A stretch of DNA of 55,879 nucleotides from Alphaproteobacteria bacterium (lineage in GTDB: Bacteria > Pseudomonadota > Alphaproteobacteria > Rs-D84). Positions 1,361 to 47,680 of the stretch are shown in pieces. The number at the start of each line of letters is the position of its first letter. Positions within the stretch are counted from its first letter, which is position 1. The stretch spans positions 1-55,879 of the forward strand of contig JBAYXF010000001.1 in NCBI GenBank assembly GCA_041673665.1. The letters run 5' to 3'. The notes below the pieces were generated by a model. That model saw only the letters and a program-made list of their open reading frames with translations. It was not told the origin of the DNA and made no database searches. The translations under genes were made by a program, and so were the position numbers.

Positions 1361-1380
1361 TAATTATATACAAAGAGAGA

Positions 1381-1668
1381 ATGAATATGTTGTGTTACGA
1401 AAAAATAGAACGTATTTCACGGACAATGTGCTTGACCCCATACCAGCTATATATGCTTGAAGTAAATGCAGACAAATATAATTTAAATAAATTGGTAAAA
1501 TATGGGACTGCCTTATATGCGCCCTATAAATGCGAAATCTGTCATGGTTTTATAGACAAGCTTAAAAAAATATTTTTTGGGCCATGTGCTGATTTAATAG
1601 GCCCAGATACACTTTTGGTTTTTAATACTCGTGGGATAAAAGCCAAGCGCTTTATGCCCAATAACTAA
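1381..1668 (+). CDS. Hypothetical protein, 95 aa
   Basis: ORF only. It has a weak purine-rich stretch (agagaga) before the ATG and no recognisable motif. It overlaps the asmA-like stop by 4 nt. Confidence 0.3.
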   Translation: MNMLCYEKIERISRTMCLTPYQLYMLEVNADKYNLNKLVKYGTALYAPYKCEICHGFIDKLKKIFFGPCADLIGPDTLLVFNTRGIKAKRFMPNN

Positions 1669-4190: not shown

Positions 4191-4234
4191 ATTCTTCTCT
4201 CCCTTGCATTTTCATTATAATGAATTATATTTAA

Positions 4235-16478: not shown

Positions 16479-16479
16479 A

Positions 16480-17127
16480 ATGAAAATTAAAAATATATTC
16501 TGGGATGTTGATGGTGTTCTGGCAGATTTAAATCATGCATACTATAAATTTTTAACGGGACATCAAAATTGGCGGAATAAATTTGATATATCCAGTTTTA
16601 GTGATTTACCAAAAGCCTTGCCAATTTCAAGCCCAGAGTTTGGAAGTCTGGAATTATTAACGCATCCAGAATTTGCGGAACAATTAAATCATGATTTTAT
16701 AACATCTGAATTTTTTGATGATCGTCCATTATATCCAGATACAAAGCCCGCTATTATCAGCTTGCATGATATGGGAATAAACCAAACCATAATGTCTGCG
16801 ACCGGTACGCCCGAAAGAAAAAAAGCAGTATTAAAATCTTTGTTTGATGGTTTGCCAATTGATATACGCGTTGCCCCACACGGGGAAGGAAAAGAAGCAA
16901 AAGAAAGTCATATGATAAAATATATGAATGAAAATAATTGGAATCCATCCGAAACAATATTGGTTGATGACAGACCATATAATTTACGTGCAGCAATTCG
17001 CGCCGGAATAAGACCAATTCGTTATCGCAGTGAATTTACAATTGATAATCCAATAGATTTAAAAACACCAGAATTTTTTAATTTAAAAGATTTGGTTGAA
17101 TATATAAAAAAGGAAAACGGGTTATGA
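16480..17127 (+). CDS. HAD-superfamily hydrolase, 5'(3')-deoxyribonucleotidase (NT5C)-like
   Basis: HAD motif I in NT5C form (WDVDGVLADL). The start is placed at the ATG at 16480, 2 nt after the recA stop; an alternative ATG at 16468 overlaps recA. Confidence 0.55.
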   Translation: MKIKNIFWDVDGVLADLNHAYYKFLTGHQNWRNKFDISSFSDLPKALPISSPEFGSLELLTHPEFAEQLNHDFITSEFFDDRPLYPDTKPAIISLHDMGINQTIMSATGTPERKKAVLKSLFDGLPIDIRVAPHGEGKEAKESHMIKYMNENNWNPSETILVDDRPYNLRAAIRAGIRPIRYRSEFTIDNPIDLKTPEFFNLKDLVEYIKKENGL

Positions 17128-17879
17128 AAACATGCGTAATAATACCTTGTAGAATGGCATCAGAAAGATTACCAGAAAAGTTTATACAAGATATAAATGG
17201 TAAAACTTTATTGCAACGTGTTTATGAAAATGTGTCAGCTGAATTTGGAAAAGATGATGTGTTTATCGCATTGGATGGTGAAAAGTTAGCAGCTCTTGCA
17301 CAATCATTTGGTGCAAAATTTATAATAACAGATCCGAATTGTCCATCTGGCACGGATCGTATTGCGCAGGCGCTGGAAACCATAGACCCAAATGGCGATA
17401 AATACGATTTTGTTATAAATTTTCAGGGCGATGATGTAAATGTTAATCCAAAAATAAGCAGTCGTCTTGCGCAAATATTGGAAAAGACAGGCGCAGATTT
17501 AGCAACGGTTGTTCAGCCAATAGACGATGAAAATATGATTATGAATCCATCTATTGTAAAGGTTGCTATGGTTCAATCAACGGGTCGTTGTTTATATTTT
17601 TCACGCAGTCCAATTCCATTTAACCGCAAGGTAGGATGCACAGACAAGGCTTTTTGGCACATTGGAATGTATGCGTATAATTTAAAGTCTTTGCGTAAAT
17701 TTGTTAAATTACCAGTTGGTGAATTAGAAAAATTAGAAAGCCTGGAACAACTAAGATTTTTGGAAAACGGCATGAGTGTTTTTGCCGGTATTTTAGAAGA
17801 TACCAGAATAAATACACAAGCTCCTGCTGATGTGAATACTGCAGAAGATTTAGAAGAAATGAGGAAATACATAAAATGA
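17124..17879 (+). CDS. kdsB: 3-deoxy-manno-octulosonate cytidylyltransferase
   Basis: N-terminal VIIPCRMASERLPEKF, plus NFQGDD and LEQLRFLENG motifs. Confidence 0.9.
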   Translation: MKTCVIIPCRMASERLPEKFIQDINGKTLLQRVYENVSAEFGKDDVFIALDGEKLAALAQSFGAKFIITDPNCPSGTDRIAQALETIDPNGDKYDFVINFQGDDVNVNPKISSRLAQILEKTGADLATVVQPIDDENMIMNPSIVKVAMVQSTGRCLYFSRSPIPFNRKVGCTDKAFWHIGMYAYNLKSLRKFVKLPVGELEKLESLEQLRFLENGMSVFAGILEDTRINTQAPADVNTAEDLEEMRKYIK

Positions 17880-18712
17880 AACATGTAAAAATTTCAGACA
17901 AGATTATATTTGGAAATGATTTGCCATTTGTTTTGATTGCTGGTCCATGCGCAATGGAAACACTGGATCATACAATGTTTATGGCAGAAAGTTTAATAAA
18001 GGTAACAGATAAATTGGGAATTCCATTTGTATTCAAAACCAGTTTTGATAAAGCAAATAGAACATCAATAACATCAAAGCGTGGTGCAGGTTTAGATTGT
18101 GCAATGAAGGTATTTGATGAAATCCGTAAAAAATTTGGTTGTGCTTGTATTACGGATATTCATTTGCCTGAGCAGGCAGAGATTGTTGCACCACATGTTG
18201 ATATGTTGCAAATACCGGCCTTTTTGGCACGTCAAACGGATTTGTTAGTTGCTGCTGCAAAAACAGGCAAGCCTGTTAATGTAAAAAAACCACAATGGTC
18301 CGCGCCACAGGATATGAAAGCTACATTGGGCAAAATGTACGATTCAGGAAATGATAAAATATTACTGTGTGAACGTGGAACCAGTTTTGGTTATAATAAT
18401 TATGTTGTTGATATGCGCAGTATCCCATGGATGTCTGCATTAGATGCACCAGTTGTAATTGATGCAACGCACGGGATTCAACAACCAGCCAGCAGTGGTT
18501 GCACCAGTGGCGGTGACAGACGTCTGGCACCAGTTATTGCACGTGCGGCATTGTCGGTTGGCGTTTCAGCGGTGTTCGTAGAAGTACATGATAATCCAGA
18601 TGTTGCCCCATGTGATGGACCAAATATGATTAAATTATCTGATATGGAAAATGAATTAAAGACTTGGAAAGATATAGATGCAATAGCAAAAGCAAATCCG
18701 ATAATTTTATAA
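17876..18712 (+). CDS. kdsA: 2-dehydro-3-deoxyphosphooctonate aldolase
   Basis: FKTSFDKANRTS, IPAFLARQTDL and DATH motifs. A 4-nt overlap with kdsB suggests coupling. Confidence 0.95.
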   Translation: MKHVKISDKIIFGNDLPFVLIAGPCAMETLDHTMFMAESLIKVTDKLGIPFVFKTSFDKANRTSITSKRGAGLDCAMKVFDEIRKKFGCACITDIHLPEQAEIVAPHVDMLQIPAFLARQTDLLVAAAKTGKPVNVKKPQWSAPQDMKATLGKMYDSGNDKILLCERGTSFGYNNYVVDMRSIPWMSALDAPVVIDATHGIQQPASSGCTSGGDRRLAPVIARAALSVGVSAVFVEVHDNPDVAPCDGPNMIKLSDMENELKTWKDIDAIAKANPIIL

Positions 18713-22419: not shown

Positions 22420-23856
22420 TTGCAAAGCGAAGCCCGTGGAAATTTTTTATTACAAGCTTTGCTTGCGATTGCCCTGGTAATGTTTTTTATGCCCTTTGTG
22501 GCACAAAAATTATCATCAAAGAAAAACGATTCCGAATTAAGCGCAATTGCACGCCAAGCAAACAGTGCTGCATATGCTGCACGTGAATTTATAAAAGCAA
22601 GCAAAGACAATCTTGCTTATGGTCAGCAACACTTTAAAGATGATGATTTTACCGATTTATTGGAACCGTTTGGTCTACCTTTGGGATTTGTTACACAAAC
22701 CAGTGCAAACCAGGAAATATCTCTTTTTACGGGAAAAAAAGAATCTGAAATTTTAAGTGTGATAGTTTTGCGTGGCGGAAATTTATCGGAACTTAAAAAA
22801 AGGGAGCTGCTTACGCGCATTGGGCCGGACGCCGCCATCGCTGATGCAGATGGAATTTTACATGGGATCGGTGGTTGGGAAAAGAATCTGAAAGATTTTA
22901 AAATCAAGCCGGATGTTTCGGCTGTTTACATTTTAATCCCTTCAGATGATGATTTTTCGGAACTTGTTCGTAGAAAAGCAGAGAATCTGGCCCGGGCAAA
23001 ATTTCATACTAATTTAAACATGGGAAATTTTTCTATAAAAAATGTTGTTTCGTTGACCACAAGAAATGCAGAATTTGACGTTGCTAATTTTGATACACTT
23101 TCTATTACTGGTTCCGGCGGGGATAGAAAATTTAAAAACGATATAGGTGTGTTGTCCACAAAGCGTGCGGTATTTCAAAAGGGGAAGGATGACAACCCAT
23201 TAAGCATTTATCGTGGCGATCTAAAAGCAACTGCATTGTATGCTCAAACATTATTTAAATATGGATTGCCAGGAACCATTTATGCAAACAGTGCTTCGCT
23301 AAATTCTTTATCTATGTCTGCTGGGCATACAGGATTTTATGGTATGTATGATTGGGATGTCCACAGTGATGTTATCTTAAACAATGTTTCTATAGATACA
23401 GAATATTTAGAAGTAAATGGTTTTATAAACGCTTCGCGCGGGCAAGACGTTTTTATTGATCAAGATGAGTTAACTTATTTCAGTAAAAGCGGAGTAGAAA
23501 CAGAATCTATAACCACGGCATTTATAACCTTACGAGATCAAATATCCAGTGCGTTATTATCTGGCGACGATAGTGCTATAATTATGGATATCAGGCCGGC
23601 CGGAGTCTCCGTGCTTCCTGACATTTTAGTAGACACCATAGATAATGATAATTTTCAAATTCTTAAAAATCCGGACTTGGATGATGGGGAAGTTGTTACT
23701 TGTAGAAGTATAATTTCATCACTTTCATCATCATCAACTTATAATTCAAAATCAGTAATACAAAATATTATTTGCCAGTTTGTATTTTGGCAACGACTGG
23801 AACGCCGTATAGATATTAAACAATGTTTGATAGATGGAAACAGTGATTGTGGATAA
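22420..23856 (+). CDS. Large type IV pilin-like protein P1 (prepilin-type N-terminus, 478 aa)
   Basis: The TTG start is preceded by AGGAGGG. N-terminus is MQSEARG|NFLLQALLAIALVMFFMPF, with Gly at -1, Gln at +5 and a 20-residue hydrophobic helix. It is paralogous to the next two ORFs. Four Cys lie in the last 51 aa. Confidence 0.6.
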   Translation: MQSEARGNFLLQALLAIALVMFFMPFVAQKLSSKKNDSELSAIARQANSAAYAAREFIKASKDNLAYGQQHFKDDDFTDLLEPFGLPLGFVTQTSANQEISLFTGKKESEILSVIVLRGGNLSELKKRELLTRIGPDAAIADADGILHGIGGWEKNLKDFKIKPDVSAVYILIPSDDDFSELVRRKAENLARAKFHTNLNMGNFSIKNVVSLTTRNAEFDVANFDTLSITGSGGDRKFKNDIGVLSTKRAVFQKGKDDNPLSIYRGDLKATALYAQTLFKYGLPGTIYANSASLNSLSMSAGHTGFYGMYDWDVHSDVILNNVSIDTEYLEVNGFINASRGQDVFIDQDELTYFSKSGVETESITTAFITLRDQISSALLSGDDSAIIMDIRPAGVSVLPDILVDTIDNDNFQILKNPDLDDGEVVTCRSIISSLSSSSTYNSKSVIQNIICQFVFWQRLERRIDIKQCLIDGNSDCG

Positions 23857-25096
23857 TTGCATTGATAAAAAATATTTTTATAAAGAGCAAAAAGGTTCAG
23901 GGTTAATGGAAACCCTGCTGGCAATTGCAATTGTTGGTGCAATAATGCCCTTTGCCTATAATAGTGTAATGGATATGAGTCGCAAAGTCGCGGATGTATC
24001 TGAATCAAAACGTATTATTGCATGGCAAGATCCAGTTATGGCATATGTTCGTAAAAATCAGGCAGATTGGCCATCAAATGCCCAGGTAGAATTTGATGAG
24101 GAAGAGGTTGTTAATATTGGCACAGGAGATAATCGTTTGCTAAAACCATATGCTGGGTTTATTGAAAAACGCGAGGGTTCGGGGGGAATATCAATAAATG
24201 CATATCTTGCTTTTAAGCCGGTTGATATAAAAAAAGTAAGGGTTGCGAATATCGTTCAAAATATAGGTGTTGATGCCGCAATGGTGCAATCTGGCGGTGA
24301 AGCCGTCAGCCAAAGCGGGTGGAGTATTTCATCGGAATTATTTACAGAAGGTGATTTAATTTTCAGGGTTTCTGATATTTTGGGTGAAGACGATGTATAT
24401 AAATATTTACACAGAACATATCTGGATGATAAAGAATTAAATACTATGCGGCGAGATTTGGATATGGCAAAGAACAGTATATCTGGGGTTGGGAAAATAA
24501 CGGCGCAAACTATAAATGCAACAGGCGCAAAAGCCTGGTTTGTTAATTCTTCAAAAGTTATAACAAACGAAATCTTTTTCCCAGAGGGGATGACAATTGA
24601 TGCGTCCAAGGCCATATTTGGGTCTATAACAGTAAATGGCGACGTTAATGGTTTTAGAAAAATTACAGCAGATAAATTAAAACATGTTGGGACAATGTCC
24701 AGTGCTACATGGGCAACCAAGGGGGATATAATTGCGGACTCGGTCAATATAAATGGACCGGTACATGTTCAGCGTGATATGGTTGTAAAATCAGAAAGCG
24801 CACGGACAATTACTGGGTTTGCTGGAATTCGTACCCAGGCGGTTGCTACGCCATATTTATATGCGGACAATTTAATTTTCCAGGCAGGTTATGGAATAAC
24901 AATTTCCAGTGATTTATTATATTCTAGTTCTGGCGAATCAATCACAATAGGTAGCTGGAGGTTTCCATCAACAACAGGGCCGGGATTTTCAGAATTGATT
25001 TTGAAAAAAACAAGCGATGAAGAATTTGGAGAAGCGCTGGCAACGCCAGATAGTGAAGATTTTTCTCCGCTGATGACAAGCGGGTGGAAAGATTAA
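23834..25096 (+). CDS. Large type IV pilin-like protein P2 (420 aa)
   Basis: N-terminus ...DKKYFYKEQKG|SGLMETLLAIAIVGAIMPF, with Gly at -1 and Glu at +5. The leader aligns with that of P3, which favours the ATG at 23834 over the internal ATG at 23906. It overlaps the P1 stop by 23 nt. Confidence 0.6.
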   Translation: METVIVDNCIDKKYFYKEQKGSGLMETLLAIAIVGAIMPFAYNSVMDMSRKVADVSESKRIIAWQDPVMAYVRKNQADWPSNAQVEFDEEEVVNIGTGDNRLLKPYAGFIEKREGSGGISINAYLAFKPVDIKKVRVANIVQNIGVDAAMVQSGGEAVSQSGWSISSELFTEGDLIFRVSDILGEDDVYKYLHRTYLDDKELNTMRRDLDMAKNSISGVGKITAQTINATGAKAWFVNSSKVITNEIFFPEGMTIDASKAIFGSITVNGDVNGFRKITADKLKHVGTMSSATWATKGDIIADSVNINGPVHVQRDMVVKSESARTITGFAGIRTQAVATPYLYADNLIFQAGYGITISSDLLYSSSGESITIGSWRFPSTTGPGFSELILKKTSDEEFGEALATPDSEDFSPLMTSGWKD

Positions 25097-25112
25097 GTAA
25101 TTTATAAAATAA

Positions 25113-26417
25113 ATGAAAAACAAAAGAAAATTTTTTAAAAATGAATACGGCGGAATGATGTTAGAAATTCTGCTGTCGTTGGCAATTACAGTTGCTGTTG
25201 TTCCATTTGTTATGCGCGAGTTAAATAGTCGTACGCATCGTGCTGAAAATGTTCGTATTGCGCGCGATATCAGCGAGACTAAAGAAGCCTTGGAAAGATA
25301 TATGACTGCTCATAAACTCAAATTATTAGAGCCGTCTGGTCGTGTAGTTATCAAGGTTAAAATTAGTGATTTATCAGAATACGGAAACATTCCAAAAGAT
25401 CATGAAAAATTTCAAGCACGCATAATAAAATCTAGGAGTATCAGCGGGCGTACGGTGTTGTCTGGTATGGTTATATATGATTCTGCAGAGATATCGCCAA
25501 TTCGTACACGCGAAATAGCTGAACTGGGTGGGGAATCATCAGGGTTCATAGATAATAACCAAGCACATGGAGTATTTGGTACGTGGCATTCTAGAACAAA
25601 TATTTTTGATGCAACGTTCAGTAACAATTCTGTCGTAGAAAATACAAATACAATTTTGTCAGGTGGGGATTTTTTATGGAGGCTTCCTTCAAAAAATTCT
25701 CTTGATGCATCAATGTCAACAGACTTGCTAATCGGAGATAACAGTATAGAAGATGTTTCAACAATTGATACGTATGGGGCGAATTTTACAGAAATTTTAA
25801 AATCGGGTTTAATTAATGTAGAAACGGTTCAGATTACACCACGTGCGGAATTGTCTGCAGAATTAAATGTTTCCGGGGAAACGCTAGTAATCGGAGCATT
25901 AACATCAGATTCAAGAAGCGCAGAAATAAGCGGAAGTTTATCATTAACTGATACAGGTACAGTTTCAAAATTAGAAGCAAGAGAGATATGGGTTGGGGAT
26001 TTGACTTTGAACGGATTAACTATTAATGGCAGTGCCGAGCCAGCAATTTTAAAAGTTAGTAGCACGATAGATATTACAAGAGGAAAAATTACAACAACAA
26101 CAGCGACTATTGGATATACTGGATCTGTTTCTCCAAAGATTGTTGTAACAGACCGTATAGAAGATCCATCAAATTCTTCATATTATTGGGATTTAACAAC
26201 AGATAAAGCATCTTTTTCAGATGTTTACTGTGCTGAACTAAATCAGATATTAAAAACCGCAATTACTAATGAATCACAAACTATAAGAACCAAGACGGAA
26301 ACAATAATAAGGGCAATTGCCGCAAACAGCAATGCTACTATTTCTGATTATGTCAAGGCATTAAGTGAAATTCAAACCAGTGTAACAGCGAAATATAATA
26401 ACTTGAATTTAGACTAA
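25113..26417 (+). CDS. Large type IV pilin-like protein P3 (434 aa)
   Basis: N-terminus MKNKRKFFKNEYG|GMMLEILLSLAITVAVVPF, with Gly at -1 and Glu at +5. It shares internal motifs with P1 and P2. Confidence 0.6.
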   Translation: MKNKRKFFKNEYGGMMLEILLSLAITVAVVPFVMRELNSRTHRAENVRIARDISETKEALERYMTAHKLKLLEPSGRVVIKVKISDLSEYGNIPKDHEKFQARIIKSRSISGRTVLSGMVIYDSAEISPIRTREIAELGGESSGFIDNNQAHGVFGTWHSRTNIFDATFSNNSVVENTNTILSGGDFLWRLPSKNSLDASMSTDLLIGDNSIEDVSTIDTYGANFTEILKSGLINVETVQITPRAELSAELNVSGETLVIGALTSDSRSAEISGSLSLTDTGTVSKLEAREIWVGDLTLNGLTINGSAEPAILKVSSTIDITRGKITTTTATIGYTGSVSPKIVVTDRIEDPSNSSYYWDLTTDKASFSDVYCAELNQILKTAITNESQTIRTKTETIIRAIAANSNATISDYVKALSEIQTSVTAKYNNLNLD

Positions 26418-38156: not shown

Positions 38157-38771
38157 TTATTCCTTAAAATCATCAGGGTTTATATTTAATTCTGTTTTTA
38201 TTCTGTGCTCTAACCTTTTTTGAATTTCATCAAAAACTTGCAATAAAGCCGGTTCTGAAGCAAACATATCACGATAAGACTTGCTGAAATACCATTTCCA
38301 ATAAACCCCATTATCATAAGAACCAATATGATCCAACGTCTTTGAAAATAATGTTTGGAAACATACATCTAATCTATCAAGCATTTTTACAAATTTTGAT
38401 TCTGGTGTTTTTTGTTCCTCGTATTCTTGCCATAAAGTTTCAAACTCTGAATTATTCAGCAATTTTGTAAATTCATTCATTATTTCAGTTTCGTCTTTTT
38501 CTTTTTTTTCACGTGCCGCATCATCATTTAATGTTTTATGCGCTGGAATATCATGAGATTTACTTTCTGGCAAGTCGTGCGCAGCACAAAGTTTTAAAAC
38601 GCGTTCCATATTAAGTGTTACGGATGCTTTTGGAACAAATGTTATCGCCATCAATGACAGCATAAAACAATGTGCAGCCACAGATTGTTGTTCCCCATCG
38701 GACATTCTGGTTGTGCGTTTTTCATAATGTAAATGTTCCGCTGTTTTAAAAAATTCAATAATATTATTCAT
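38157..38771 (-). CDS. HD-domain phosphohydrolase (YfbR-like 5'-nucleotidase family)
   Basis: QSVAAHCF...AAHDLPESKSHDIP matches the H...HD...D pattern of HD_3 proteins. The start is taken at the ATG at 38771, overlapping the upstream stop by 8 nt. Confidence 0.6.
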   Translation of the reverse strand: MNNIIEFFKTAEHLHYEKRTTRMSDGEQQSVAAHCFMLSLMAITFVPKASVTLNMERVLKLCAAHDLPESKSHDIPAHKTLNDDAAREKKEKDETEIMNEFTKLLNNSEFETLWQEYEEQKTPESKFVKMLDRLDVCFQTLFSKTLDHIGSYDNGVYWKWYFSKSYRDMFASEPALLQVFDEIQKRLEHRIKTELNINPDDFKE

Positions 38772-40074
38772 CCAAATACTCGCGCAGTTTATCTCCGGAA
38801 AGTTCAGCGGCCGGTTCATCGTCCGCAGAGTCTACGATTGAAATAACACGTGGGCTCATGAATATCACCAATTCTGCAAATGGGTTTATTAATGTTTCAG
38901 ATGTTGTTACAAAGCTGTGTGTTGGGATGCCGATAATTACATAATTATCACCCAGTTTTGTTGGAACGTTAAAACTGGCCAGTTCCCCAGCGGTTGTACG
39001 CAGTGCAATTTTCGCATCTACTTTTTTCATATCGGCGTATTTTCCATATTTACCAGTTGCGCCAACGATTAAATCAGTTTCCAATCTGTCTTCGCGTGAG
39101 CATTGACCAATATCAAATCTGCTTTGCCAGCCGTTTGGTATTACAAATGTTCCCTGGGAAATTAAAACTACATTTGCTTGGTCGGATAAAAATGTTTGTA
39201 ATGTTTTTGTGTTTATTTCTGGGGATACAACCAGCAATCTGCCAACAACGCCAGGGATAGACATTTTGACATTCTTTTCCCCAAATGCGGGCAGCATATT
39301 CATCCAAACAATTGGATTGTCGGTACGTGGATATACACGGTATACATCCATATCCCATGCAACCAAGAATTTTTTATTTCCGATATCGGAAACGATATCA
39401 CGAACTTTCTTTTCGATTTGATAATTCCCTTCGAACGCCAAGGTTTTATCTTCCCAGTTAGTTATTAAATTACGCAAGTCAGCACCATGCATTGCATCAA
39501 TTAATGCCATGATTACGTATTGATCTTTAGGCATTTTCATCAGCCATTTTCCACGACTGGAAATACGAAGCTCTCTGGTGTCGTCGTCATAGGTATAGTA
39601 AGTTTTACCAAGTTTACAAATTAGTTCTACGGCGTCTTCTAGTGTTCCAGATGTAATCTCACCACTGATTAAGTCAGGTAATTTCTCACTGGCAACAATT
39701 TTAATTTTTGTTCCATCAAGTAATTTTTCCAAAACAGCTGGTACATTTTTTTTCTGGAAAGAAAAATTTTCTACAGCAAAATCTGGAAGATTATCGCCCT
39801 TGTTCAAACGAACAATTTCAACGGGCGTTGTTGGCAGAACAGATAATATACTTTGGTTGTCCCAATCAACTTTGCATCGTTTTGGCAAATCAATTGCAAA
39901 TTTTTGTGCGGTATCTGTTGTTAAAGCAGCCTTGCGTGGAAAGATCGGAACAGAATGTTCGTCCACTACAATGTTTTCAACCACTTGGACAGTGTCATAT
40001 TGTTGTTGATTTCGACTTTGAAATTGTTGGCATGCACCAACAAATAAAATCAAAAGCAAATATAATTTTCTCAT
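38764..40074 (-). CDS. Outer-membrane lipoprotein with a divergent secretin-like C-terminal domain
   Basis: Lipobox LFVGAC. The C-terminal half reads NVVLISQGTFVIPNGWQSRFDIG ... ASFNVPTKLGDNYVIIGIPT ... FAELVIFMSPRVISI. This parallels the secretin pattern (vLssP.i.t.nn..a.i.vG ... t.v.v.dG.tvviGGl ... eLlifitPrii). Confidence 0.4.
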   Translation of the reverse strand: MRKLYLLLILFVGACQQFQSRNQQQYDTVQVVENIVVDEHSVPIFPRKAALTTDTAQKFAIDLPKRCKVDWDNQSILSVLPTTPVEIVRLNKGDNLPDFAVENFSFQKKNVPAVLEKLLDGTKIKIVASEKLPDLISGEITSGTLEDAVELICKLGKTYYTYDDDTRELRISSRGKWLMKMPKDQYVIMALIDAMHGADLRNLITNWEDKTLAFEGNYQIEKKVRDIVSDIGNKKFLVAWDMDVYRVYPRTDNPIVWMNMLPAFGEKNVKMSIPGVVGRLLVVSPEINTKTLQTFLSDQANVVLISQGTFVIPNGWQSRFDIGQCSREDRLETDLIVGATGKYGKYADMKKVDAKIALRTTAGELASFNVPTKLGDNYVIIGIPTHSFVTTSETLINPFAELVIFMSPRVISIVDSADDEPAAELSGDKLREYLDE

Positions 40075-40083
40075 TTTGGTCCC

Positions 40084-40392
40084 TTATATATTCATAACAC
40101 GTTCAAATTCTTCGAGTGTCATTTCATAGATTGGTTTATTACTGGGGGTAATCAAATTTTTTGCACCCTGAAATTCGGTTTGATATTTTTTTATCAATGC
40201 TTTTAATTTGGCGTCGGTGGGATTTATTTTTTCGCCGTACGCATTCAGCATTTCCAGAACATCTGCCGCAAAAAAGCGCCCCGTATAATTTTCAGCTGCG
40301 ATACCACCTTTTTGGGTACGTATTGCGGCGGATAAAATTTTCAAAGCCTCATAAAATCCGGCTATACGGATATATCTTTCTTCCGCGGTCAT
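40084..40392 (-). CDS. Hypothetical cytoplasmic protein, 102 aa (first gene of the secretin-like/lol operon)
   Basis: ORF only, predicted helical. It lies 9 nt upstream of the lipoprotein gene on the same strand. Confidence 0.4.
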   Translation of the reverse strand: MTAEERYIRIAGFYEALKILSAAIRTQKGGIAAENYTGRFFAADVLEMLNAYGEKINPTDAKLKALIKKYQTEFQGAKNLITPSNKPIYEMTLEEFERVMNI

Positions 40393-40492
40393 TTATTGCT
40401 CCTTCCTGTGTTTGCATTATAGAATTAAAAAGCCAGCTTTCGCAAGCGTAAAAGGAGAAATTATAAGGAATAAGTTATAAGGGAAATTTATA

Positions 40493-40522
40493 TTGCTAAA
40501 AATTTAATTTTTCAGTTATAAT
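40493..40522 (+). promoter_or_regulatory. Candidate sigma70-type promoter directly abutting the lipoprotein ORF
   Basis: TTGCTA (40493-40498), 18-nt spacer, TATAAT (40517-40522). The ATG at 40530 is only 7 nt downstream and no SD is visible. Confidence 0.2.
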
Positions 40523-40529
40523 CTAAATT

Positions 40530-40919
40530 ATGAAAAGAACTTTTGTCCTTGTTGCTTTATCGTTTGCGCTTTTGGTGGGATGTTCATCTGCTAATCGTGG
40601 ATCCATTGACGATGCGACGGTTTTAAATTGGGAAAATGATATGGTTACGACCGAACAATTTGTTCGTGATCATAAAAATTGTTTGGGAATAACACGTTCC
40701 CCTTATGAACCCAGATCTAGATTAGCCAAGCTTATCAGCCCAAATCAATCCAGTTTGATGCCAGATTGGGATGGCTTATGGGTGACTTTTCAATCCAATG
40801 AAAATAAAGACATCGGGCAGCGTTCTTTGATGTCGGTTCCTCCTAATTCCAGCTCCAGATCAGTTGGGGCGTATCGTAAATGTATGATGCGTCGTGGTTA
40901 TTTGTTGCGCGCAAATTAA
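40530..40919 (+). CDS. Hypothetical lipoprotein, 129 aa
   Basis: Signal peptide with lipobox LLVGC. No recognised domain. Confidence 0.5.
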   Translation: MKRTFVLVALSFALLVGCSSANRGSIDDATVLNWENDMVTTEQFVRDHKNCLGITRSPYEPRSRLAKLISPNQSSLMPDWDGLWVTFQSNENKDIGQRSLMSVPPNSSSRSVGAYRKCMMRRGYLLRAN

Positions 40920-40958: not shown

Positions 40959-41642
40959 ATGAAAAACAGATTTGTATTTTGGTTGATATCCAGTCTTACC
41001 GTCATACTTGTAATTTATGTAGCGGTTCGCGTCAGTATAGTATTATTGGGGTTGGGCGGAACATTATCAGATATAAAAAAACTTACAGTTTATTCCAGTA
41101 ATGGTGAAACGGCCGATATAATTGAGCGTTTGGGCATCACCCCTGGAACCAAACATATTGATTTGGACGATATTCTGGCAAAGGTTTCTGAAGATCCCGA
41201 TCTTTCCGGGGTTGCAATTCGACGCTTGCCAAATGGCGAAATTAATGTTCGTGCCGATATGCGGGTTGTTGTCGCGGGTTGGACAGATGGGGAAAAATAT
41301 TATCCTTTGGACAATAATGGGGTCCCAATTAATAGAGCGTTACCAACAAGACCGGAAAATACTCTGATTTTTTCAGGTAAGGTTCCAAAAGATATATCAA
41401 AAATAATAAACATAGTAAAGCACACCCCTGGGCTTTTCAGTCGCATTGACAGAATGGAATTTATAGAAGATAGACGCTGGAACATTTTTTTATTAAACGG
41501 AATTAAAATTATGTTGCCCGAAGAAAATTTTGAAGAAGCTATAAAAAAAATTGATAAAACTAACAAACAAAATATGATTTTGGACAGACAGATAAAATTG
41601 CTGGATATGCGGGATTTATCAAGACCATTGGTGAAATTATAA
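40959..41642 (+). CDS. ftsQ: Cell division protein FtsQ
   Basis: N-terminal TM helix, POTRA-like region, and RWNIFLLNGIKIMLPEEN motif. It lies immediately upstream of ftsA. Confidence 0.8.
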   Translation: MKNRFVFWLISSLTVILVIYVAVRVSIVLLGLGGTLSDIKKLTVYSSNGETADIIERLGITPGTKHIDLDDILAKVSEDPDLSGVAIRRLPNGEINVRADMRVVVAGWTDGEKYYPLDNNGVPINRALPTRPENTLIFSGKVPKDISKIINIVKHTPGLFSRIDRMEFIEDRRWNIFLLNGIKIMLPEENFEEAIKKIDKTNKQNMILDRQIKLLDMRDLSRPLVKL

Positions 41643-41648
41643 ACAAAT

Positions 41649-43421
41649 ATGAATTTAACAGAAGGCTCTTTTTTGTGTTTAGATATAGGTTCGGGCGGGG
41701 TGCACGCGGTCGCTGCACGGGTTTGTTTTGGACGGCTTAAAGTTTCATCAAATATATATGTTGAATCCAGGGATATTGTGTATGCGGTCAAGACGGCGGT
41801 GGATAATTTAGAAGAACAAATAGGGGCCAGATTCGACAAGGCGTTTGTTACGGGAAATTTCGGAGAAATTAAATCAGAAATTTTTTCAAGAAAAAGCGTA
41901 TGGGAAACAGAACGAAAAATTACACCAAATGATATTCTAGAACAAATATCAGATGTTACCCAAGATGATATTTCTGTATTACATATAATGCCTTTACGTT
42001 ATGATTTAGGGGGTGCGCGAAATCTTTCTAACCCGCTGGGGCATATTGATCATGCATTGCATTCGGTGTTTAATGTAATTGCTTATTTGAACAAGGGTTT
42101 AATGCGCGCAAAATCTGCGTTGCATGCTGCACATCTAGAGTCCGAAGGTTTTTTCGATCCGATGTTTTTGCTGGGATTGTCTGCGCGCAAAGCATCAGAA
42201 AATTCTGTATTCATAGATTTTGGCGCAGAATTTACCAGCGTTTCTATGTGGACCGCGCGTGGGCCGATGTTGATTAAAAAAATACCAATGGGCGGGATTG
42301 ATATTACAAGGGCAATTGCTAATACTTTTAATTTACCAATTATAGAAGCAGAAAGATTAAAAATTTCCAGCATGAATCTGGAACAATCTGATATGGATAG
42401 ATTTACTCCGGCGGATTCTAAATATGATATAACCAGATTTGATGTGAACGAAATAGCAAGCAGTGTTTTTTCTGAAATTATATGTCAGGTTGGTGATGTT
42501 TTAAGCACAGGAATAGAAAAATATAATCCAGAACGACTGTATGTAAGTGGTGGTGGCTCTGGTACTAACGGATTAGAAAAGTTTTTAAAAAAAGAATTTG
42601 GTATGCCGGTTAAAAATATGGGCTCGTTCGGTATAGTTAATTCATTGGCAGAATTTGTATGGAATACTGAATCTGAAAGGGTCAAAGGATATTTAGAACG
42701 CAGAAAAAAATGGGAAAAATTTTTTAACTTTTTAGCAGCACCATTGAATTGGAGATTTTATCCACGTCGTAAAAAAATTATTCCGATTATGCCCAGTACT
42801 TTATGTTGGGACATGCGAAGTTCAGACACTTATGCCAGATTTGAATCTGCAGATATCAGTATGATTCATGTTGATATAATGGATGGATTTTATGTTGAAA
42901 GAATTGCCAGTGGAATTGATGAACTTCGATTCATACGTGCGCATACCGCGGCTCATTTACACGTTCATTTAATGACGGAAAACCAGGCGACTTGGACGAA
43001 AGAAGCGATTGAATGTGGTGCGGACACAATTATTGTTTCAACCGGAACAAATGGTGTAATTCGTGCGTTAAAAGAAATACAATCTGCGGGAAAACGTTCT
43101 GGAATTGCGTTACATCCAGAATCTTCGTTAGAAGTTATAGCCCCAGTTTTAAGGGGTGTTGATGAAGTAATGGTAATGTCAGTTATCCCAGGAGAATCAG
43201 GACAAGAGTTTATAGAAGAGTCAATATCAAGAATTGCTTCTCTTGCTAATACCAGACGCAAACATGGATTAAAATTTAAAATTTCTGTTGATGGCGGAAT
43301 AAATCCGGAAACGGCGAAAAAATGTTGGGCGGCTGGCGCGGATTTTCTAGTCTCTGGCAGTTTTTTAAGTGGTGCTCCAGATTTTGCCGTAGCGGTGCAA
43401 GAACTTTTGGAAAAAAAGTAG
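41649..43421 (+). CDS. ftsA: FtsA-like cell division protein fused in frame to a ribulose-phosphate 3-epimerase-like domain
   Basis: aa 1-350 are an actin-fold FtsA (LDIGSGGVHAV, 1C/SHS2 region ITPNDI..VLHIMPLRYDLGG, GGIDITRAIA, LYVSGGGSG). aa 351-370 (RRKKWEKFFNFLAAPLNWRF) look like the FtsA amphipathic membrane-targeting helix. aa 375-590 carry RPE motifs (IHVDIMDG, HVHLM, MSVIPGESGQEF, VDGGI, GADFLVSGS). No stop codon separates the parts. Confidence 0.7.
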   Translation: MNLTEGSFLCLDIGSGGVHAVAARVCFGRLKVSSNIYVESRDIVYAVKTAVDNLEEQIGARFDKAFVTGNFGEIKSEIFSRKSVWETERKITPNDILEQISDVTQDDISVLHIMPLRYDLGGARNLSNPLGHIDHALHSVFNVIAYLNKGLMRAKSALHAAHLESEGFFDPMFLLGLSARKASENSVFIDFGAEFTSVSMWTARGPMLIKKIPMGGIDITRAIANTFNLPIIEAERLKISSMNLEQSDMDRFTPADSKYDITRFDVNEIASSVFSEIICQVGDVLSTGIEKYNPERLYVSGGGSGTNGLEKFLKKEFGMPVKNMGSFGIVNSLAEFVWNTESERVKGYLERRKKWEKFFNFLAAPLNWRFYPRRKKIIPIMPSTLCWDMRSSDTYARFESADISMIHVDIMDGFYVERIASGIDELRFIRAHTAAHLHVHLMTENQATWTKEAIECGADTIIVSTGTNGVIRALKEIQSAGKRSGIALHPESSLEVIAPVLRGVDEVMVMSVIPGESGQEFIEESISRIASLANTRRKHGLKFKISVDGGINPETAKKCWAAGADFLVSGSFLSGAPDFAVAVQELLEKK

Positions 43422-43527: not shown

Positions 43528-46272
43528 ATGAGAATAAAAAAAGCAATTATTGTTGGTTTAGTGCTACCTTTGGTATCAGAAATCTGTTCAATGTCAGCTG
43601 GGGCTGTAACTTATATGACGACGGCTTCGTCGCGTCCAAGTACGACTGCACGCATGCCGACGTTGTCATACAGCGCGTCGTCCAGCACATCGTCCAGCAC
43701 GACATCAACAAATGCTGGCTTGCTTGCAACTTGTGCAAATCCATTGCCAGATCGTTTGACATCGGGACGTTGTATCGACAGATATGATTCTTGTTTGCGT
43801 CAGGATAACGTTTGTGGTGAACATTTTGAACTTTGCTATAATTTAAAACAATTTAATAAATCTCGTATTATGTGCCAAGAATATTTGGCGCAATGTCCAG
43901 CCGAAGCAGTTAAAGCAATATTTGGAAATTCTGTAACGACATCTAATGATTTGTTGTCGGCAAACCGCACCATGTGTGATGGGGAATCTCTTTTGACCAA
44001 AAGAACATTTTCACCAGCGTTGGGCGATATTGGGGTTGCCGCCGACAGTCGTATAGACTTGGCCATTAAAGAGGGTAAAAACTGGGCAGCCGCTAACAGT
44101 GTTAAAACATGTAATAAAATTGCGGACGCTTGTATACAAAATGCTTGTAAGAAATCCCCACAAAAATGTATTTCTTTGGATGGGTTTTCTGACATAGATG
44201 CATCTGAAATGGTTAATATCGCCACATCTGGCGAAACTACATTGCGTATAAATGCAGATATGCTGACAATGTGGCTTAATAATATGGCATGGGATGGTGA
44301 TAATGTTAAAAATTACATCAAAGAACAATGCCGTGATACTGTTGGTTCTAATGAGTGGTGCTTTATGGTCACAAATGGTACGCCGGCGAAAGAAGTTGAT
44401 TTAACCGACAGCTTTAATATTCAAGAAGTTTACCAAGATATTATGTATAATGGCGTTGGTGCTCGTTGGAAAATGGCACAGTCCAAGATAAAAGAATGGG
44501 CTGCATTAGCAACTAAGAAATCCGTAGAACAATGTAAAGATGCAATGACAGATTGTGCCGTGAATGCTTGTGGTGAAGGATCCAAGGCCCGTTGCTATGG
44601 TTTGGCTAAAGATGGCAATACTGTCAGTATAAAAAATAAAGCTGGTTCTGATATTACAGGCCAATGTGAAAATTTGATTGAAAATAATCAATATTGTAAA
44701 GATGTATTCCGTAATAAAGATACGGGCGAAGATGGTGACGTTTGGGCAGCGGTATGGACCGAGGACTTAATGGGCGCAATTGTCGGATTGGATTCAGATT
44801 TACAAAAAGCATTTAACGAAGCAGCAGTTGCTCAAATGCGTAGCAGTTGCCAGGCTCAGGCTGAAAAATGTGTAGAAAGTGAATGTGGAACAGATTTCTC
44901 GCGTTGCTTTATTACCAGTATAGAGGCAAAGAAAAATAGCAGTGTTTCTTTTTCTGAGGGTTCAGCAATAAGCAGCAATTTATATGCTGGTGGATTTGAT
45001 GAAGTTTTGGCACGTAACTTGTGTATGTTAAAGATTAAAAAATATACAGATTGTATAGATTACTTTGATGTTCAGTATGCCAAGGCAACAACCGGGACCA
45101 GTGCAGATTCTTGGGGAACGTCAAGCAATGTTCGTAATGCATGGCTAGATGCTGCAAATAGTGATTCTGCAGATAAGGTTTGCCGTGTATCGGAAACTTA
45201 TATAGATCAAGTTGATGAATCTGGAAATGCTGTTGATACTACTAAAAAATTAGCACCTAAGGTTAAAACTTGTGCTACACAAGAACGTAGTATATTTGAT
45301 GGTTTATTGTCAGATATCAGCAAACGTGCTAATTCTGTATTAGAACGCGAAGCAAATGATCTTAAGAATGCATGTGAAAATAGCAATGCCAAGGGTTCAA
45401 CCGGTAAAAATTATATTTGGGCGGCTTTGTCTGACTTGGATTCATCCGATGAATATGATGGGTTCAGCGATGTTACTGCAACCAGTAATCCGTTTGACGG
45501 GTTCTGTGCGGTCAAGGTAACGATCCGTTCCAACAATTCCAAGGTAAACGATGCGCTGGGTAGTGATAAATATATGTATTACCCAAAGGGTACATCTATG
45601 CAATGTTTGGGTTTGACAACAAGCGAGTTGGAAAAAGTTGAACGTGCAGTTGCATCAGATGTTAATTTCTGCGGCAAAGGCGAAACAGCATCAACAGGCG
45701 GATGTGTAGAAAAATTGTCCGGGTTGCAAAAAACCCTTCGGATTGGTGGCGCAACAATTGCTGGTGTGGCAGTCGGCGGTTTGGGTGGAACCTTGGCAGG
45801 GAATGCTTTGGGGAACGCTACTACAAAAAGTAGCAAGCTGTCCGCTGCAGATACTGCTTTATATGCAGACTGTCAAAGCTGTTTTAAAGCAGGGGGTAAA
45901 GGATATAGTGGATTACAAGCATGTGTAGCTGTTGATGATCCAGATAACCCAGATGCAACCGAAGCATTAGCAAAATGTAATAACAAAATAAGCGAACTAC
46001 AAGCAAAGAGAGGCACTGGTAAAAAATCTGGCAGTAGTGGTTTGTTAAATATGTCTAGTACTGGTGGTAAAATAGGCGCTATTGCTGGTGCAGGGCTTGG
46101 TGGTTTAGCCGGTGGACTTCTTGCTGGTAATGCTATCAAGGAAAATGCAGATACAAAGCTTGAAGATGCACGGCAACAAGCCATAGCAGACTTTAATGCT
46201 AACACAGATATAAATTGTTATATCAATGGCAAAAAAGTCGCATCGTATGGTCAGGATATGATTGTTAAATAA
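43528..46272 (+). CDS. Large secreted cysteine-rich protein with C-terminal glycine-zipper segments (914 aa)
   Basis: Signal peptide MRIKKAIIVGLVLPLVSEICSMSAGA, then a Ser/Thr-rich linker. There are 38 Cys in the mature part, including repeated C-x6-C-x4-C-x6/7-C modules. Two Gly-zipper hydrophobic stretches are present (IGGATIAGVAVGGLGGTLAGNALG and GGKIGAIAGAGLGGLAGGLLAGNAI). A strong terminator follows. Confidence 0.6.
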   Translation: MRIKKAIIVGLVLPLVSEICSMSAGAVTYMTTASSRPSTTARMPTLSYSASSSTSSSTTSTNAGLLATCANPLPDRLTSGRCIDRYDSCLRQDNVCGEHFELCYNLKQFNKSRIMCQEYLAQCPAEAVKAIFGNSVTTSNDLLSANRTMCDGESLLTKRTFSPALGDIGVAADSRIDLAIKEGKNWAAANSVKTCNKIADACIQNACKKSPQKCISLDGFSDIDASEMVNIATSGETTLRINADMLTMWLNNMAWDGDNVKNYIKEQCRDTVGSNEWCFMVTNGTPAKEVDLTDSFNIQEVYQDIMYNGVGARWKMAQSKIKEWAALATKKSVEQCKDAMTDCAVNACGEGSKARCYGLAKDGNTVSIKNKAGSDITGQCENLIENNQYCKDVFRNKDTGEDGDVWAAVWTEDLMGAIVGLDSDLQKAFNEAAVAQMRSSCQAQAEKCVESECGTDFSRCFITSIEAKKNSSVSFSEGSAISSNLYAGGFDEVLARNLCMLKIKKYTDCIDYFDVQYAKATTGTSADSWGTSSNVRNAWLDAANSDSADKVCRVSETYIDQVDESGNAVDTTKKLAPKVKTCATQERSIFDGLLSDISKRANSVLEREANDLKNACENSNAKGSTGKNYIWAALSDLDSSDEYDGFSDVTATSNPFDGFCAVKVTIRSNNSKVNDALGSDKYMYYPKGTSMQCLGLTTSELEKVERAVASDVNFCGKGETASTGGCVEKLSGLQKTLRIGGATIAGVAVGGLGGTLAGNALGNATTKSSKLSAADTALYADCQSCFKAGGKGYSGLQACVAVDDPDNPDATEALAKCNNKISELQAKRGTGKKSGSSGLLNMSSTGGKIGAIAGAGLGGLAGGLLAGNAIKENADTKLEDARQQAIADFNANTDINCYINGKKVASYGQDMIVK

Positions 46273-46316: not shown

Positions 46317-46826
46317 TTATTTTTTAAACCATTTTTTTAAATCATCATAAGCAGCAGAAATTTTTGTAAATTCTGATGCTGCAGCGCTTTTATTTTTTGC
46401 AGTATCTGGATGACATGTTTTTGCAAGTGTGCGATATTTTGCCGATATTTCACGCCAATTTGCGGTTGGGGGCAGGTCAAAGACTTTTAATGCGTTTGAC
46501 ACTGCAGCAGGCGCACGGACAGGGCGTTTACGTGCAGATGTTGTATCAAATGCGCTGCGGCCATTTAAAAAATTGCGCAGAAAATCTATATATTCTGCAT
46601 TTGCTGCTTCTGCGGCTGCACGATCTTTGTCGGAAATTCCAAATGTTTCGCGTTCCCAATCTTGTTCAATTTCATCATTGCTCATCCCAGCATAATAATT
46701 CCAATTTTTATTGTATTCTGCAGCATGCTCTTTGCAGAACCAGTAATATTCGTTCAGGTTGCGTGATTTAGGGGCGCGACATACGCCCGCCTTGGTACAA
46801 CCTTTAAAATCACATTTTTTAATCAT
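46317..46826 (-). CDS. J-domain protein with N-terminal Cys-rich zinc-finger-like region
   Basis: C-terminal J domain with an HPD tripeptide (YRTLAKTCHPDTAK). N-terminal region is CDFKGCTKAGVCRAP..YWFCKEHAAEYNKNWN, an architecture common in Alphaproteobacteria. Confidence 0.75.
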   Translation of the reverse strand: MIKKCDFKGCTKAGVCRAPKSRNLNEYYWFCKEHAAEYNKNWNYYAGMSNDEIEQDWERETFGISDKDRAAAEAANAEYIDFLRNFLNGRSAFDTTSARKRPVRAPAAVSNALKVFDLPPTANWREISAKYRTLAKTCHPDTAKNKSAAASEFTKISAAYDDLKKWFKK

Positions 46827-47680
46827 TTTTTATCTTTCTTTGCCATTGGATGATGAACAAATACGGCTTCTTTTAACTTTTCTGGCATTACGTGGGTATA
46901 AATTTGTGTTGTTGCTATGTCCTCGTGTCCCAACATCATTTGGATTGCGCGTAAATTTGCCCCATTTGCAAGCAGGTGTGATGCAAACGAATGCCTTAAA
47001 ACGTGCGGACTGACACGGCTGGGCGAAATGCCGGATAAAACCGCGCATTTTTTTAGAATTTTGCAAAACCCATCACGTGTAATATGCCCAGTTTTAGACA
47101 CAGATGGGAAAATATATTTAGATTTTTCCCCTCCGCGTATTTCTAGCCATTTTTCCAATGCTGCTTGGGCACCGGAATGCATAGGAACCATTCGTTCTTT
47201 TGCACCTTTGCCGTGAATCAATAATTTATCGCCAAGTATAGCGGCCATGGGAAGTTCGCACAACTCGGAAACACGCAGCCCCGAAGCATATAATAATTCC
47301 ATCATTGCCCGCAGACGTACAGAATTTCTGGTGTCGCCAGCATTAGAAATCAATAACTCTATTTCGTGCTCGGTTAAAAACTTTGGTAATTTCTTTTGTT
47401 TTTTTGGCAGTTCCAGCCCATCTGACGGATTGTCACGAATTATTTTTTCAGTCGCTAAAAATTTGTAAAAACCACGTAATGCACTGGTCTTTCTGGCAAT
47501 AGATGCGGGCGTTTCATGCAGATTGGCCAGATACTTTTGCAGCTGGGATTTATTTGCAGATGACAGGGCCCCAATGGCTTCGCTTGCCATGCGCAGATCG
47601 CGACCATATGCTTCTAGTGTTTTAGCACTGCGACCTTTTTCAGCTGCCAACATTTCCAAGAATATTTCAATATGATTCAT
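46823..47680 (-). CDS. xerD: Tyrosine recombinase XerD
   Basis: N-terminal SAM-like region FLEMLAAEKGRSAKTLEAYGRDL. Catalytic region is LRHSFASHLL...MLGHEDIATTQIYTHV. Confidence 0.85.
   Translation of the reverse strand: MNHIEIFLEMLAAEKGRSAKTLEAYGRDLRMASEAIGALSSANKSQLQKYLANLHETPASIARKTSALRGFYKFLATEKIIRDNPSDGLELPKKQKKLPKFLTEHEIELLISNAGDTRNSVRLRAMMELLYASGLRVSELCELPMAAILGDKLLIHGKGAKERMVPMHSGAQAALEKWLEIRGGEKSKYIFPSVSKTGHITRDGFCKILKKCAVLSGISPSRVSPHVLRHSFASHLLANGANLRAIQMMLGHEDIATTQIYTHVMPEKLKEAVFVHHPMAKKDKK

Follow-up and report, generated by a model that had tools for sequence, protein, structure and literature searches.

A conserved fusion of FtsA with ribulose-phosphate 3-epimerase in reduced alphaproteobacterial genomes

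The DNA analyzed here, called the window throughout, comprises 55,879 nucleotides of an alphaproteobacterial assembly (GCA_041673665.1; contig JBAYXF010000001.1, positions 1 to 55,879; GTDB lineage Rs-D84). Directly behind ftsQ, it carries an open reading frame (ORF) for a 590-amino-acid (aa) protein made up of three parts: an FtsA actin fold (aa 1 to ~340), a basic tail containing an amphipathic helix (aa ~341 to 378), and a TIM barrel of the ribulose-phosphate 3-epimerase (RPE; here Rpe for the fused domain) family (aa 379 to 590). An initial annotation had described a single ORF joining FtsA to an RPE-like barrel, and had left the choice between a real fusion, a lost stop codon, and an assembly artifact. 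As detailed below, a real, ancient, and conserved fusion is clearly favored, given its presence in at least 80 species-level genomes and more than 120 protein clusters, and the purifying selection acting on it. The parts of the gene are as follows; AF2 denotes AlphaFold2 models, pLDDT their predicted local distance difference test score, and MTS the membrane-targeting sequence of FtsA.

41649..43421, + strand: ftsA::rpe fusion ORF, 590 aa, ATG start, uninterrupted frame without internal stop
41649..42668, + strand: FtsA actin-fold core, aa 1-340 (Pfam, NCBIfam, AF2 pLDDT ~90-96, Foldseek, hhalign)
41868..42128, + strand: 1C (SHS2) subdomain, aa ~74-160 (weak SHS2_FTSA match, AF2 secondary structure, invariant columns)
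42669..42782, + strand: FtsA tail or interdomain linker, aa 341-378, net charge ~+9/+10, positional equivalent of the canonical linker plus MTS
42705..42749, + strand: conserved amphipathic helix, aa 353-367, hydrophobic face W355, F359, L362, L366
42750..42776, + strand: polybasic disordered connector, aa 368-376, K/R frequency 0.55-0.84 per column, AF2 pLDDT < 50 at aa 368-372
42783..43418, + strand: Rpe (beta/alpha)8 barrel, aa 379-590 (PF00834; phmmer and Foldseek versus 2FLI)
42879..42908, + strand: Rpe loop B, aa 411-420, Y-V-[DEN]-[RKN] for canonical F-V-P-N, pLDDT ~68
43185..43211, + strand: Rpe loop C (active-site lid), aa 513-521, PG-[AE]-[ASG]-GQ for canonical PGFGGQ

One polypeptide, two well-folded domains

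Profile searches recognized both halves of the protein. In Pfam, the FtsA family PF14450 matched aa 187 to 322 (E = 2.5e-13), accompanied by a weak SHS2_FTSA match at aa 87 to 144, and Ribul_P_3_epim (PF00834) matched aa 381 to 572 (E = 5.6e-43; 147 bits versus a cutoff of 21.1). Among the NCBIfam models, the Rpe subfamily model NF004076 was passed (175.3 bits, cutoff 165), the rpe equivalog TIGR01163 reached 158.7 bits, under its cutoff of 212.6, and the pilM model scored only 28.5 bits. The AF2 model of the full-length protein (mean pLDDT 91.4) consists of an FtsA core, a helix, and an Rpe barrel. Together, the continuous frame, the domain matches, and the predicted structure show one polypeptide with two well-folded domains, as the initial annotation had claimed.

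The junction between the halves contains homopolymer runs (A7, T6, A7), the type of sequence able to mask a frameshift. An independent European Nucleotide Archive assembly (an 80.8-kb contig, locus L089) is 100% identical over 5,773 bp and has the same frame, and relatives at 60 to 90% protein identity differ in their junction nucleotides while keeping the reading frame. The identical independent assembly, together with a frame kept in at least 80 genomes with differing junctions, rules out an assembly or frameshift artifact. Accordingly, no stop codon or frameshift between residues 350 and 380, the stretch singled out in the initial annotation as the place where two separate genes might reveal themselves, was found in the window, the independent assembly, or the relatives. 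In addition, all segments of the fusion are under purifying selection: compared with a 90%-identical relative, the ratio of nonsynonymous to synonymous substitution rates (dN/dS, or ω) was 0.11 for FtsA, 0.24 for the tail and linker, and 0.12 for Rpe, and comparison with a 74%-identical relative gave similar values across segments, the linker ranging from 0.13 to 0.24.

A separate Rpe product from an internal start at M381 was likewise rejected as a family feature. The initial annotation had pointed to this ATG, in the IIPIMPSTL segment, as a possible source of a second product. The methionine is not conserved, being replaced by leucine in several fusion members, and no Shine-Dalgarno-like sequence precedes the ATG.

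The earlier assignment of aa 1 to 350 to FtsA was sustained by fold search, by profile-profile alignment, and by the nearest unfused relatives, which are bona fide FtsAs. The AF2 model of this N-terminal domain (N-domain) has FtsA topology, and in a Foldseek search of the PDB, the top 19 matches were all FtsA chains (from S. aureus, Vibrio, T. maritima, E. coli, and Xenorhabdus) with a target-normalized template modeling (TM) score of ~0.70 over 350 to 389 columns; no PilM appeared among the top 50. When a profile of 70 fused proteins was aligned with a profile of 20 canonical FtsAs using hhalign, the match had a probability of 100% and E = 1.8e-40 over 359 columns. Solved FtsAs share ~16-19% sequence identity with the domain, the nearest unfused FtsAs 24-29%, and each of the six closest unfused relatives scores above the cutoff of the FtsA equivalog model TIGR01174. 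The window protein carries the ATP-site motifs D12-x-G14, D190-x-G192...T196 (DxGxxxT), and G301-G303 (adenosine GGG); this exact pattern recurs in 107 of 141 fused sequences, with near-variants in most others. Within subdomain 1C, H112 and P115, which belong to the canonical FtsA motif IIHxxP, are family-invariant, and both IIHxxP and AERxK are conserved in the fused family. We infer that the N-domain is the divisome FtsA of this lineage.

In canonical FtsAs, the C terminus is an amphipathic helix of the pattern W-[LF]-x-x-N-F. The hhalign alignment extends to column 414/417 of the canonical profile and so covers this membrane-targeting helix, and the 78 aa between G301 of the adenosine motif and Rpe beta1 compare with a median of 85 aa from motif to C terminus in canonical FtsAs. 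According to AF2, the tail forms one long helix (aa 342 to 369; pLDDT ~60-68 past residue 360), followed by disorder at aa 368 to 379. Across 70 sequences, the tail has a mean pairwise identity of 33% (versus 51% for FtsA and 68% for Rpe) and a median net charge of +10 (minimum +7), whereas the canonical FtsA tail has a median of about +2. Columns 355, 359, 362, and 366 are hydrophobic in 74-99% of these sequences, with K/R columns flanking, and the column-averaged periodicity peaks at 100-105 degrees (permutation p = 0.0065-0.0175). The proposal that aa 351 to 370 are the FtsA membrane helix is supported by its position, the alignment through the MTS, the tail length, and the hydrophobic stripe; a significant hydrophobic moment was not seen in individual sequences (see below). 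From the alignments, we conclude that a complete FtsA, tail included, would have been the partner in the fusion, and it is plausible that the tail still binds the membrane. A GC-rich branch (L084, from GCA_031263295.1, GC 55%; P0139, P0140, P0142, and P0149) has a short linker in which the amphipathic helix is missing.

The Rpe half aligns end to end with the S. pyogenes RPE 2FLI (phmmer E = 1.3e-38; Foldseek TM 0.91, root mean square deviation 1.5 Å). As the initial annotation had read from its motifs (IHVDIMDG, HVHLM, MSVIPGESGQEF, and VDGGI, all of which we found), the metal and catalytic positions are kept: alignment to 2FLI and E. coli Rpe identifies the tetrad as H407, D409, H440, and D548, and this HDHD set is present in 137 of 141 fused sequences, and three of the 141 are dead. 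The methionine cushion M411, M442, and M510 is also present (MMM in 129/141), as are the phosphate-binding loops with G518, G549-G550, and G569-S570. Of the reference sequences used in these analyses (FtsZ and Rpe of E. coli, RPE of S. pyogenes), that of FtsZ was validated as FtsZ, and that of S. pyogenes agrees with the 2FLI alignment.

What sets the barrel apart is its gate loops. The change of FVPN to YVER in loop B, noted from the window sequence, turned out to be a signature of the whole clade rather than the quirk of one genome: none of the 141 fused sequences has Pro-Asn in loop B. Similarly, none has PGFGGQ in loop C, where the window protein reads PGESGQ and the majority PGAAGQ, whereas the canonical motifs of both loops are present in the alignments of 2FLI, 1RPX, 7B1W, and E. 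coli Rpe. For Chlamydomonas RPE1 (CrRPE1), in which roles of the methionine cushion and the phosphate-binding glycines have been described, Val-Pro of loop B packs on Pro-Gly-Phe of loop C, the two together restricting substrate access, and loop B is also part of the canonical dimer interface. Given this packing, the changes in the two fusion loops look coordinated. The RPE literature searched describes the contacts between loops B and C and the loop-C Phe only, and does not address a role of the canonical loop-B Asn. With its catalytic residues in place, the barrel is probably a working sugar-phosphate 3-epimerase, and the cell's Rpe, in most members, including the window.

Distribution and genomic setting

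In a search space of 5.8 billion proteins, more than 120 clusters of fusion proteins were found overall. Counting homologue clusters among the matches listed, all 120 have a length of ~590 aa at 45-100% identity, and 119 carry both Pfam domains. A genome scan with one genome per GTDB species yielded 292 confirmed loci; the best 80 of the 292 were retrieved, and all 80 match fusion residues 1 to ~589 in one segment, so that the fusion is indeed present in related genomes, where the initial annotation had suggested looking for it. We also searched 1.84 billion cluster representatives exhaustively with HMMER, taking the N-domain alone as the query. All relatives with E < 1e-19 and sufficient length carry Rpe (24 representatives, down to ~27% identity), and unfused relatives begin only at 82 bits, which argues that the fusion is monophyletic and old. 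Judged from these protein searches, then, the fusion is a single-clade and deep event, and no reversion to separate ftsA and rpe genes was seen in the N-domain search.

The loci come from gut, rumen, and termite metagenome-assembled genomes (MAGs) labeled Alphaproteobacteria, Rickettsiales, or Candidatus Enterousia, and include two complete chromosomes, OZ246409.1 (716 kb) and OZ007020.1 (959 kb). Despite their alphaproteobacterial locus, five records (L001, L003, L008, L033, and L077) bear the title "uncultured Muribaculaceae bacterium" or "Bacteroides fragilis," which looks like taxonomic mislabeling or bin contamination. Enterousia falls within the GTDB order Rs-D84, all members of which have reduced genomes of 0.7-1 Mb (PMC12306168); two MAGs of that study, L035 and L042, carry the fusion. 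Overall, the hosts are gut bacteria with reduced genomes, comprising Ca. Enterousia, order Rs-D84, and relatives. The same paper reports non-oxidative pentose phosphate genes with transaldolase absent, counts an Rpe in its pathway reconstruction, and does not mention FtsA (PMC12306168). Where the fusion proteins have been named publicly, it is as "ribulose-phosphate 3-epimerase," and once as "hypothetical protein." The initial annotation was aware of no described FtsA-Rpe fusion, and our literature search likewise found no description. The fusion therefore appears to be undescribed, while its architecture is already in public databases under the Rpe name and both domain families are well known.

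In two very AT-rich lineages, the barrel has lost its catalytic residues. In P0130 (locus GC 24%), two tetrad histidines are replaced by Asn and an Asp by Tyr, and loop C is deleted; in P0134 and P0270 (GC 26%), the changes are H to Y, D to T/S, and D to C. These loci lie in the standard lolD-lolC-unknown-unknown-lipoprotein-ftsQ-fusion neighborhood, and P0134 turned up in two assemblies made independently. For the pair P0134/P0270, dN/dS of the dead barrel is 0.21 at 81% identity, compared with 0.37 at 73% identity for the FtsA-like part. The P0134 model again contains an FtsA core, a helix, and an eight-stranded barrel (pLDDT 88), the caveat being an underlying alignment dominated by active members. 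Since the barrel stays intact and constrained despite the lost catalytic residues, a structural role within FtsA can be argued; the sequences of these dead but constrained barrels suggest a non-catalytic role, for which they are the main evidence. We also observed that the ATP motifs in the ~26% GC lineage of P0134 and P0270 (L086/L087, 10001-11770; L088, 3001-4773) are degenerate (LSIAEG, VNLENYFT, ISGSNRK). By these residues, both enzymatic halves may be inactive in this lineage while the protein stays conserved.

Around the fusion gene, the following features were annotated in the window.

40530..40919, + strand: predicted lipoprotein, 129 aa, no Pfam match; a 124-126-aa counterpart lies directly 5' of ftsQ in relatives
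40959..41642, + strand: ftsQ, 227 aa, N-terminal transmembrane helix plus FtsQ/DivIB C-terminal domain (PF03799, E = 5.5e-11)
43528-46272, + strand: Cys-rich 914-aa protein, signal-peptide-like N terminus, Gly-rich C-terminal stretches, no Pfam or NCBIfam match
16468-18712, + strand: three overlapping KDO/LPS core genes for a KdsC-like HAD hydrolase, KdsB (PF02348), and KdsA (PF00793) (KDO, 3-deoxy-D-manno-octulosonate; LPS, lipopolysaccharide; HAD, haloacid dehalogenase)

Throughout the clade, gene order upstream of the fusion is conserved, whereas the downstream side is variable. Between ftsQ and the fusion there is a gap of 6 nt, and in all relatives examined the two genes adjoin or overlap. 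All relatives examined (L081-L083, L085-L089) have a 124-126-aa gene immediately 5' of ftsQ, and the 129-aa lipoprotein gene may be the one that opens the operon; positions 40493-40522 resemble a promoter, yet a promoter and terminator scan around the operon stayed at background level. A conserved trio of uncharacterized genes always occupies the space between lolC and ftsQ (window 38764-40919; L081, L085-L089), encoding a lipoprotein-like protein of ~435-445 aa (- strand), a protein of ~102-107 aa (- strand), and the ~124-129-aa lipoprotein (+ strand). None of the three has a Pfam match, and the last could be an unrecognized divisome or envelope component. L084 has lpxK-lpxC upstream and, at the ftsQ position, a 207-aa ORF without a Pfam match.

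Downstream, the gene for the 914-aa protein directly follows the fusion in the window and in L089, and tsaE-uvrB-asmA-aspS follow it in relatives at ~30-50% identity (L081-L083, L086-L088). The window is rearranged in this respect, with uvrB, an asmA-like gene, and aspS at 2-6229, ~35-40 kb from the fusion (compare L081, 11776-18903). Just past the 914-aa gene, a XerC/XerD-type tyrosine recombinase gene (46823-47680, - strand) overlaps by 4 nt a DnaJ-domain gene (46317-46826, - strand), whose product has a Cys-rich N-terminal region. Elsewhere in the window, three consecutive ORFs of 478, 420, and 434 aa (22420-26417, + strand) have no Pfam match at E ≤ 1e-4.

The observation in the initial annotation that ftsZ does not follow ftsA was correct but is not specific to the fusion. 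By tblastn over the window plus 83-90 loci, nothing apart from the fusion gene itself turned up: no ftsZ, second ftsA, or second rpe was found within ±10 kb (91 sequences, 1.71 Mb), and FtsZ gave no match even at E ≤ 10. The closest unfused ftsA lies in the order ddl-ftsQ-ftsA followed by type VI secretion system genes, again without ftsZ behind, so that the missing ftsZ predates the fusion or is independent of it. As for metabolic context, KDO synthesis starts from ribulose-5-phosphate, a substrate or product of Rpe. The window contains the KDO/LPS genes listed above and many envelope genes, and no kdsD was seen in it.

Possible roles of the fused barrel

Taken together, we favor, with a probability of roughly 0.6, a clade-defining FtsA::Rpe protein that would act as the divisome FtsA, with its basic tail on the membrane and a barrel that is the cell's epimerase in most members as well as a structural, probably oligomerizing module. 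Its origin would be an ancient event in which a complete ftsA, including the amphipathic tail, lost its stop codon and came to read into a complete rpe; the resulting gene would be co-transcribed with ftsQ, from which it is separated by the 6-nt gap or which it overlaps. The basic amphipathic tail (aa ~353 to 376) would still attach to the membrane, so that the barrel would lie on the membrane-facing side of FtsA. There, the barrel would remain a sugar-phosphate 3-epimerase in most members, its ribulose-5-phosphate also feeding KDO/LPS synthesis, whose genes are in the window, and would have gained a structural role in FtsA, most likely in oligomerization or scaffolding. This last role is proposed because free RPEs are dimers or hexamers. 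A bolder version makes the Rpe barrel an integral divisome module that oligomerizes FtsA at the membrane and, where it binds ligand, couples FtsA assembly to pentose-phosphate status, the most reduced lineages retaining a pure scaffold in the form of a double pseudoenzyme; we consider this version unlikely.

Several points weigh against the favored reading. The fusion scores 66.3 bits (E = 2.5e-18) with the FtsA equivalog TIGR01174, short of the cutoff of 175.85, although we take the profile-profile match to canonical FtsAs as decisive over this missed threshold. Support for the membrane helix depends on the window chosen for the column-profile test (p = 0.29 for the wider window 349-368), the per-sequence hydrophobic moment of the linker was not above that of shuffled controls, and four distant GC-rich fusion members are without the helix. 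Both gate loops are unlike those of all characterized RPEs, so that activity on ribulose-5-phosphate and xylulose-5-phosphate (Ru5P/Xu5P) is not assured. The predicted TM score (pTM) of 0.61 and the low pLDDT of the linker define no interdomain interface, and communication between the domains is not indicated. The estimate of selection on dead barrels comes from one sequence pair (P0134/P0270), and a need to keep an essential fusion protein from misfolding could by itself produce the same constraint. Finally, the searches for ftsZ, a second ftsA, and a second rpe covered the window and the ±10-kb loci.

Of the rival explanations, a neutral "Rosetta-stone" fusion resulting from genome compaction, with FtsA and Rpe working independently and the barrel having neither a coupling nor a structural role, would fit the strongly reduced, gene-dense host genomes (PMC12306168), the lack of confident interdomain packing in the AF2 model (pTM 0.61, disordered connector), and the fact that each half keeps its own functional motifs. 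We think it rather unlikely, as the dead barrels are full length and more constrained than their FtsA half (ω 0.21 vs 0.37) and belong to highly reduced lineages with very AT-rich DNA, in which deletion of useless sequence is expected; moreover, the fusion persisted while the FtsA domain diverged to ~27% identity, with no reversion seen. The barrel might also have ceased to be a housekeeping Ru5P/Xu5P epimerase, acting instead on another sugar-phosphate substrate or as a ligand sensor at the division site, for example in envelope precursor supply or division gating. Several observations point that way: both substrate-channel gate loops are altered in every one of the 141 sequences (loop B lacks P-N and loop C lacks Phe), these loops touch each other and limit substrate access in CrRPE1, the TIGR01163 score is under its cutoff (158.7 vs 212.6), and an LPS/KDO cluster and many envelope genes lie nearby. 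The tetrad, three methionine cushions, and all phosphate-binding glycines are nevertheless those of true RPEs, the NF004076 Rpe subfamily model is passed, the published reconstruction counts an Rpe (PMC12306168), and there is no other rpe within the ±10-kb loci, all of which makes a change of specificity quite improbable.

Doubts about the N-domain or about the ORF itself carry still less weight. Could the N-domain be a PilM-like or other protein of the actin-like ATPase superfamily (ASKHA), serving as a pilus platform or as a sugar-kinase-like partner of the epimerase, rather than divisome FtsA? Its best PDB sequence match is PilM 2YCH (E = 2.7e-8), marginally ahead of FtsA (1.8e-7), many members show faint PilM_2 Pfam matches, and the FtsA equivalog score is under its cutoff. 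That score is still 66 bits versus 28.5 for pilM, 19 FtsA chains lead the fold ranking with no PilM in the top 50, the hhalign match to canonical FtsA (E = 1.8e-40) includes the tail, and the gene lies behind ftsQ in the relatives examined, never with pilNOPQ; no FGGY or other sugar-kinase family matched in Pfam or NCBIfam. The HMM scores, the fold ranking, and the gene context thus led us to reject a PilM or sugar-kinase identity, which we regard as highly improbable. Scarcely credible, in turn, is the idea that the single ORF misleads, be it an artifact or a source of two proteins, made by internal initiation at codon M381 or by proteolytic cleavage of the disordered basic connector. It draws on the homopolymer runs at the junction, the ATG at codon 381, and the disordered basic segment at aa 368 to 379, and it is countered by the identical independent assembly and the frame kept in at least 80 genomes with different junctions, by leucine in place of M381 in several members and the lack of a Shine-Dalgarno-like sequence before it, and by purifying selection on the tail.

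Implications and comparison with known systems

If the favored reading of a divisome FtsA carrying its own epimerase barrel is right, a central-metabolism enzyme is covalently bound to the division machinery, and FtsA tolerates a 25-kDa globular domain after its membrane-targeting helix, which bears on how FtsA filaments are seated on the membrane. The lineages with dead but constrained barrels would offer a clear example of an enzyme domain recruited to a structural purpose; coupling of FtsA assembly to pentose-phosphate status through the barrel, if true, would amount to a hard-wired metabolic checkpoint on cytokinesis. On the practical side, annotation as Rpe only means that gene-content surveys could score FtsA as missing in a whole order of widespread animal-gut bacteria, and the fusion together with its altered gate loops may serve as a clade signature.

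With RPEs (2FLI, potato 1RPX, Chlamydomonas 7B1W, human 3OVP, and E. coli Rpe), the fusion shares the barrel, the tetrad, the methionine cushions, and the glycine loops; identity between 2FLI and the fusion barrel is ~36-40%. Free RPEs differ in that they lack an N-terminal FtsA and have canonical loops B and C. In addition, the residues that form the dimer salt bridge Arg79-Glu110 in CrRPE1 read, by alignment, as Phe414 and Asn/Ser445 in the fusion.

Canonical FtsAs (T. maritima 1E4F/4A2A, S. aureus 3WQT/3WT0, E. coli 7Q6D, Vibrio 7Q6F) share with the N-domain the fold with 1C, the DxG/DxGxxxT/GGG, IIHxxP, and AERxK motifs, and a gene immediately downstream of ftsQ. Their MTS helix is C-terminal, whereas its putative counterpart in the fusion is internal, with the 212-aa TIM barrel behind it. 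PilM (2YCH/3JC8), the closest paralogous family to FtsA, shares the fold including 1C and gives a similarly weak sequence match over subdomains 2A/2B of the N-domain. It has no membrane-targeting tail and is encoded with pilNOPQ, while the fusion lies behind ftsQ, scores higher with FtsA models, and has FtsA chains as its fold matches.

Metabolic enzymes that moonlight as division regulators include UgtP of B. subtilis, OpgH of E. coli, and GdhZ and KidO of Caulobacter. As in the fusion, an enzyme of central metabolism, or a homologue whose catalytic site has degenerated, is physically tied to the cytokinetic machinery. To our knowledge, however, the link between metabolism and division has until now run through such separate moonlighting proteins, which act on FtsZ and are conditionally recruited, whereas the fusion barrel is covalently attached to FtsA throughout its clade.

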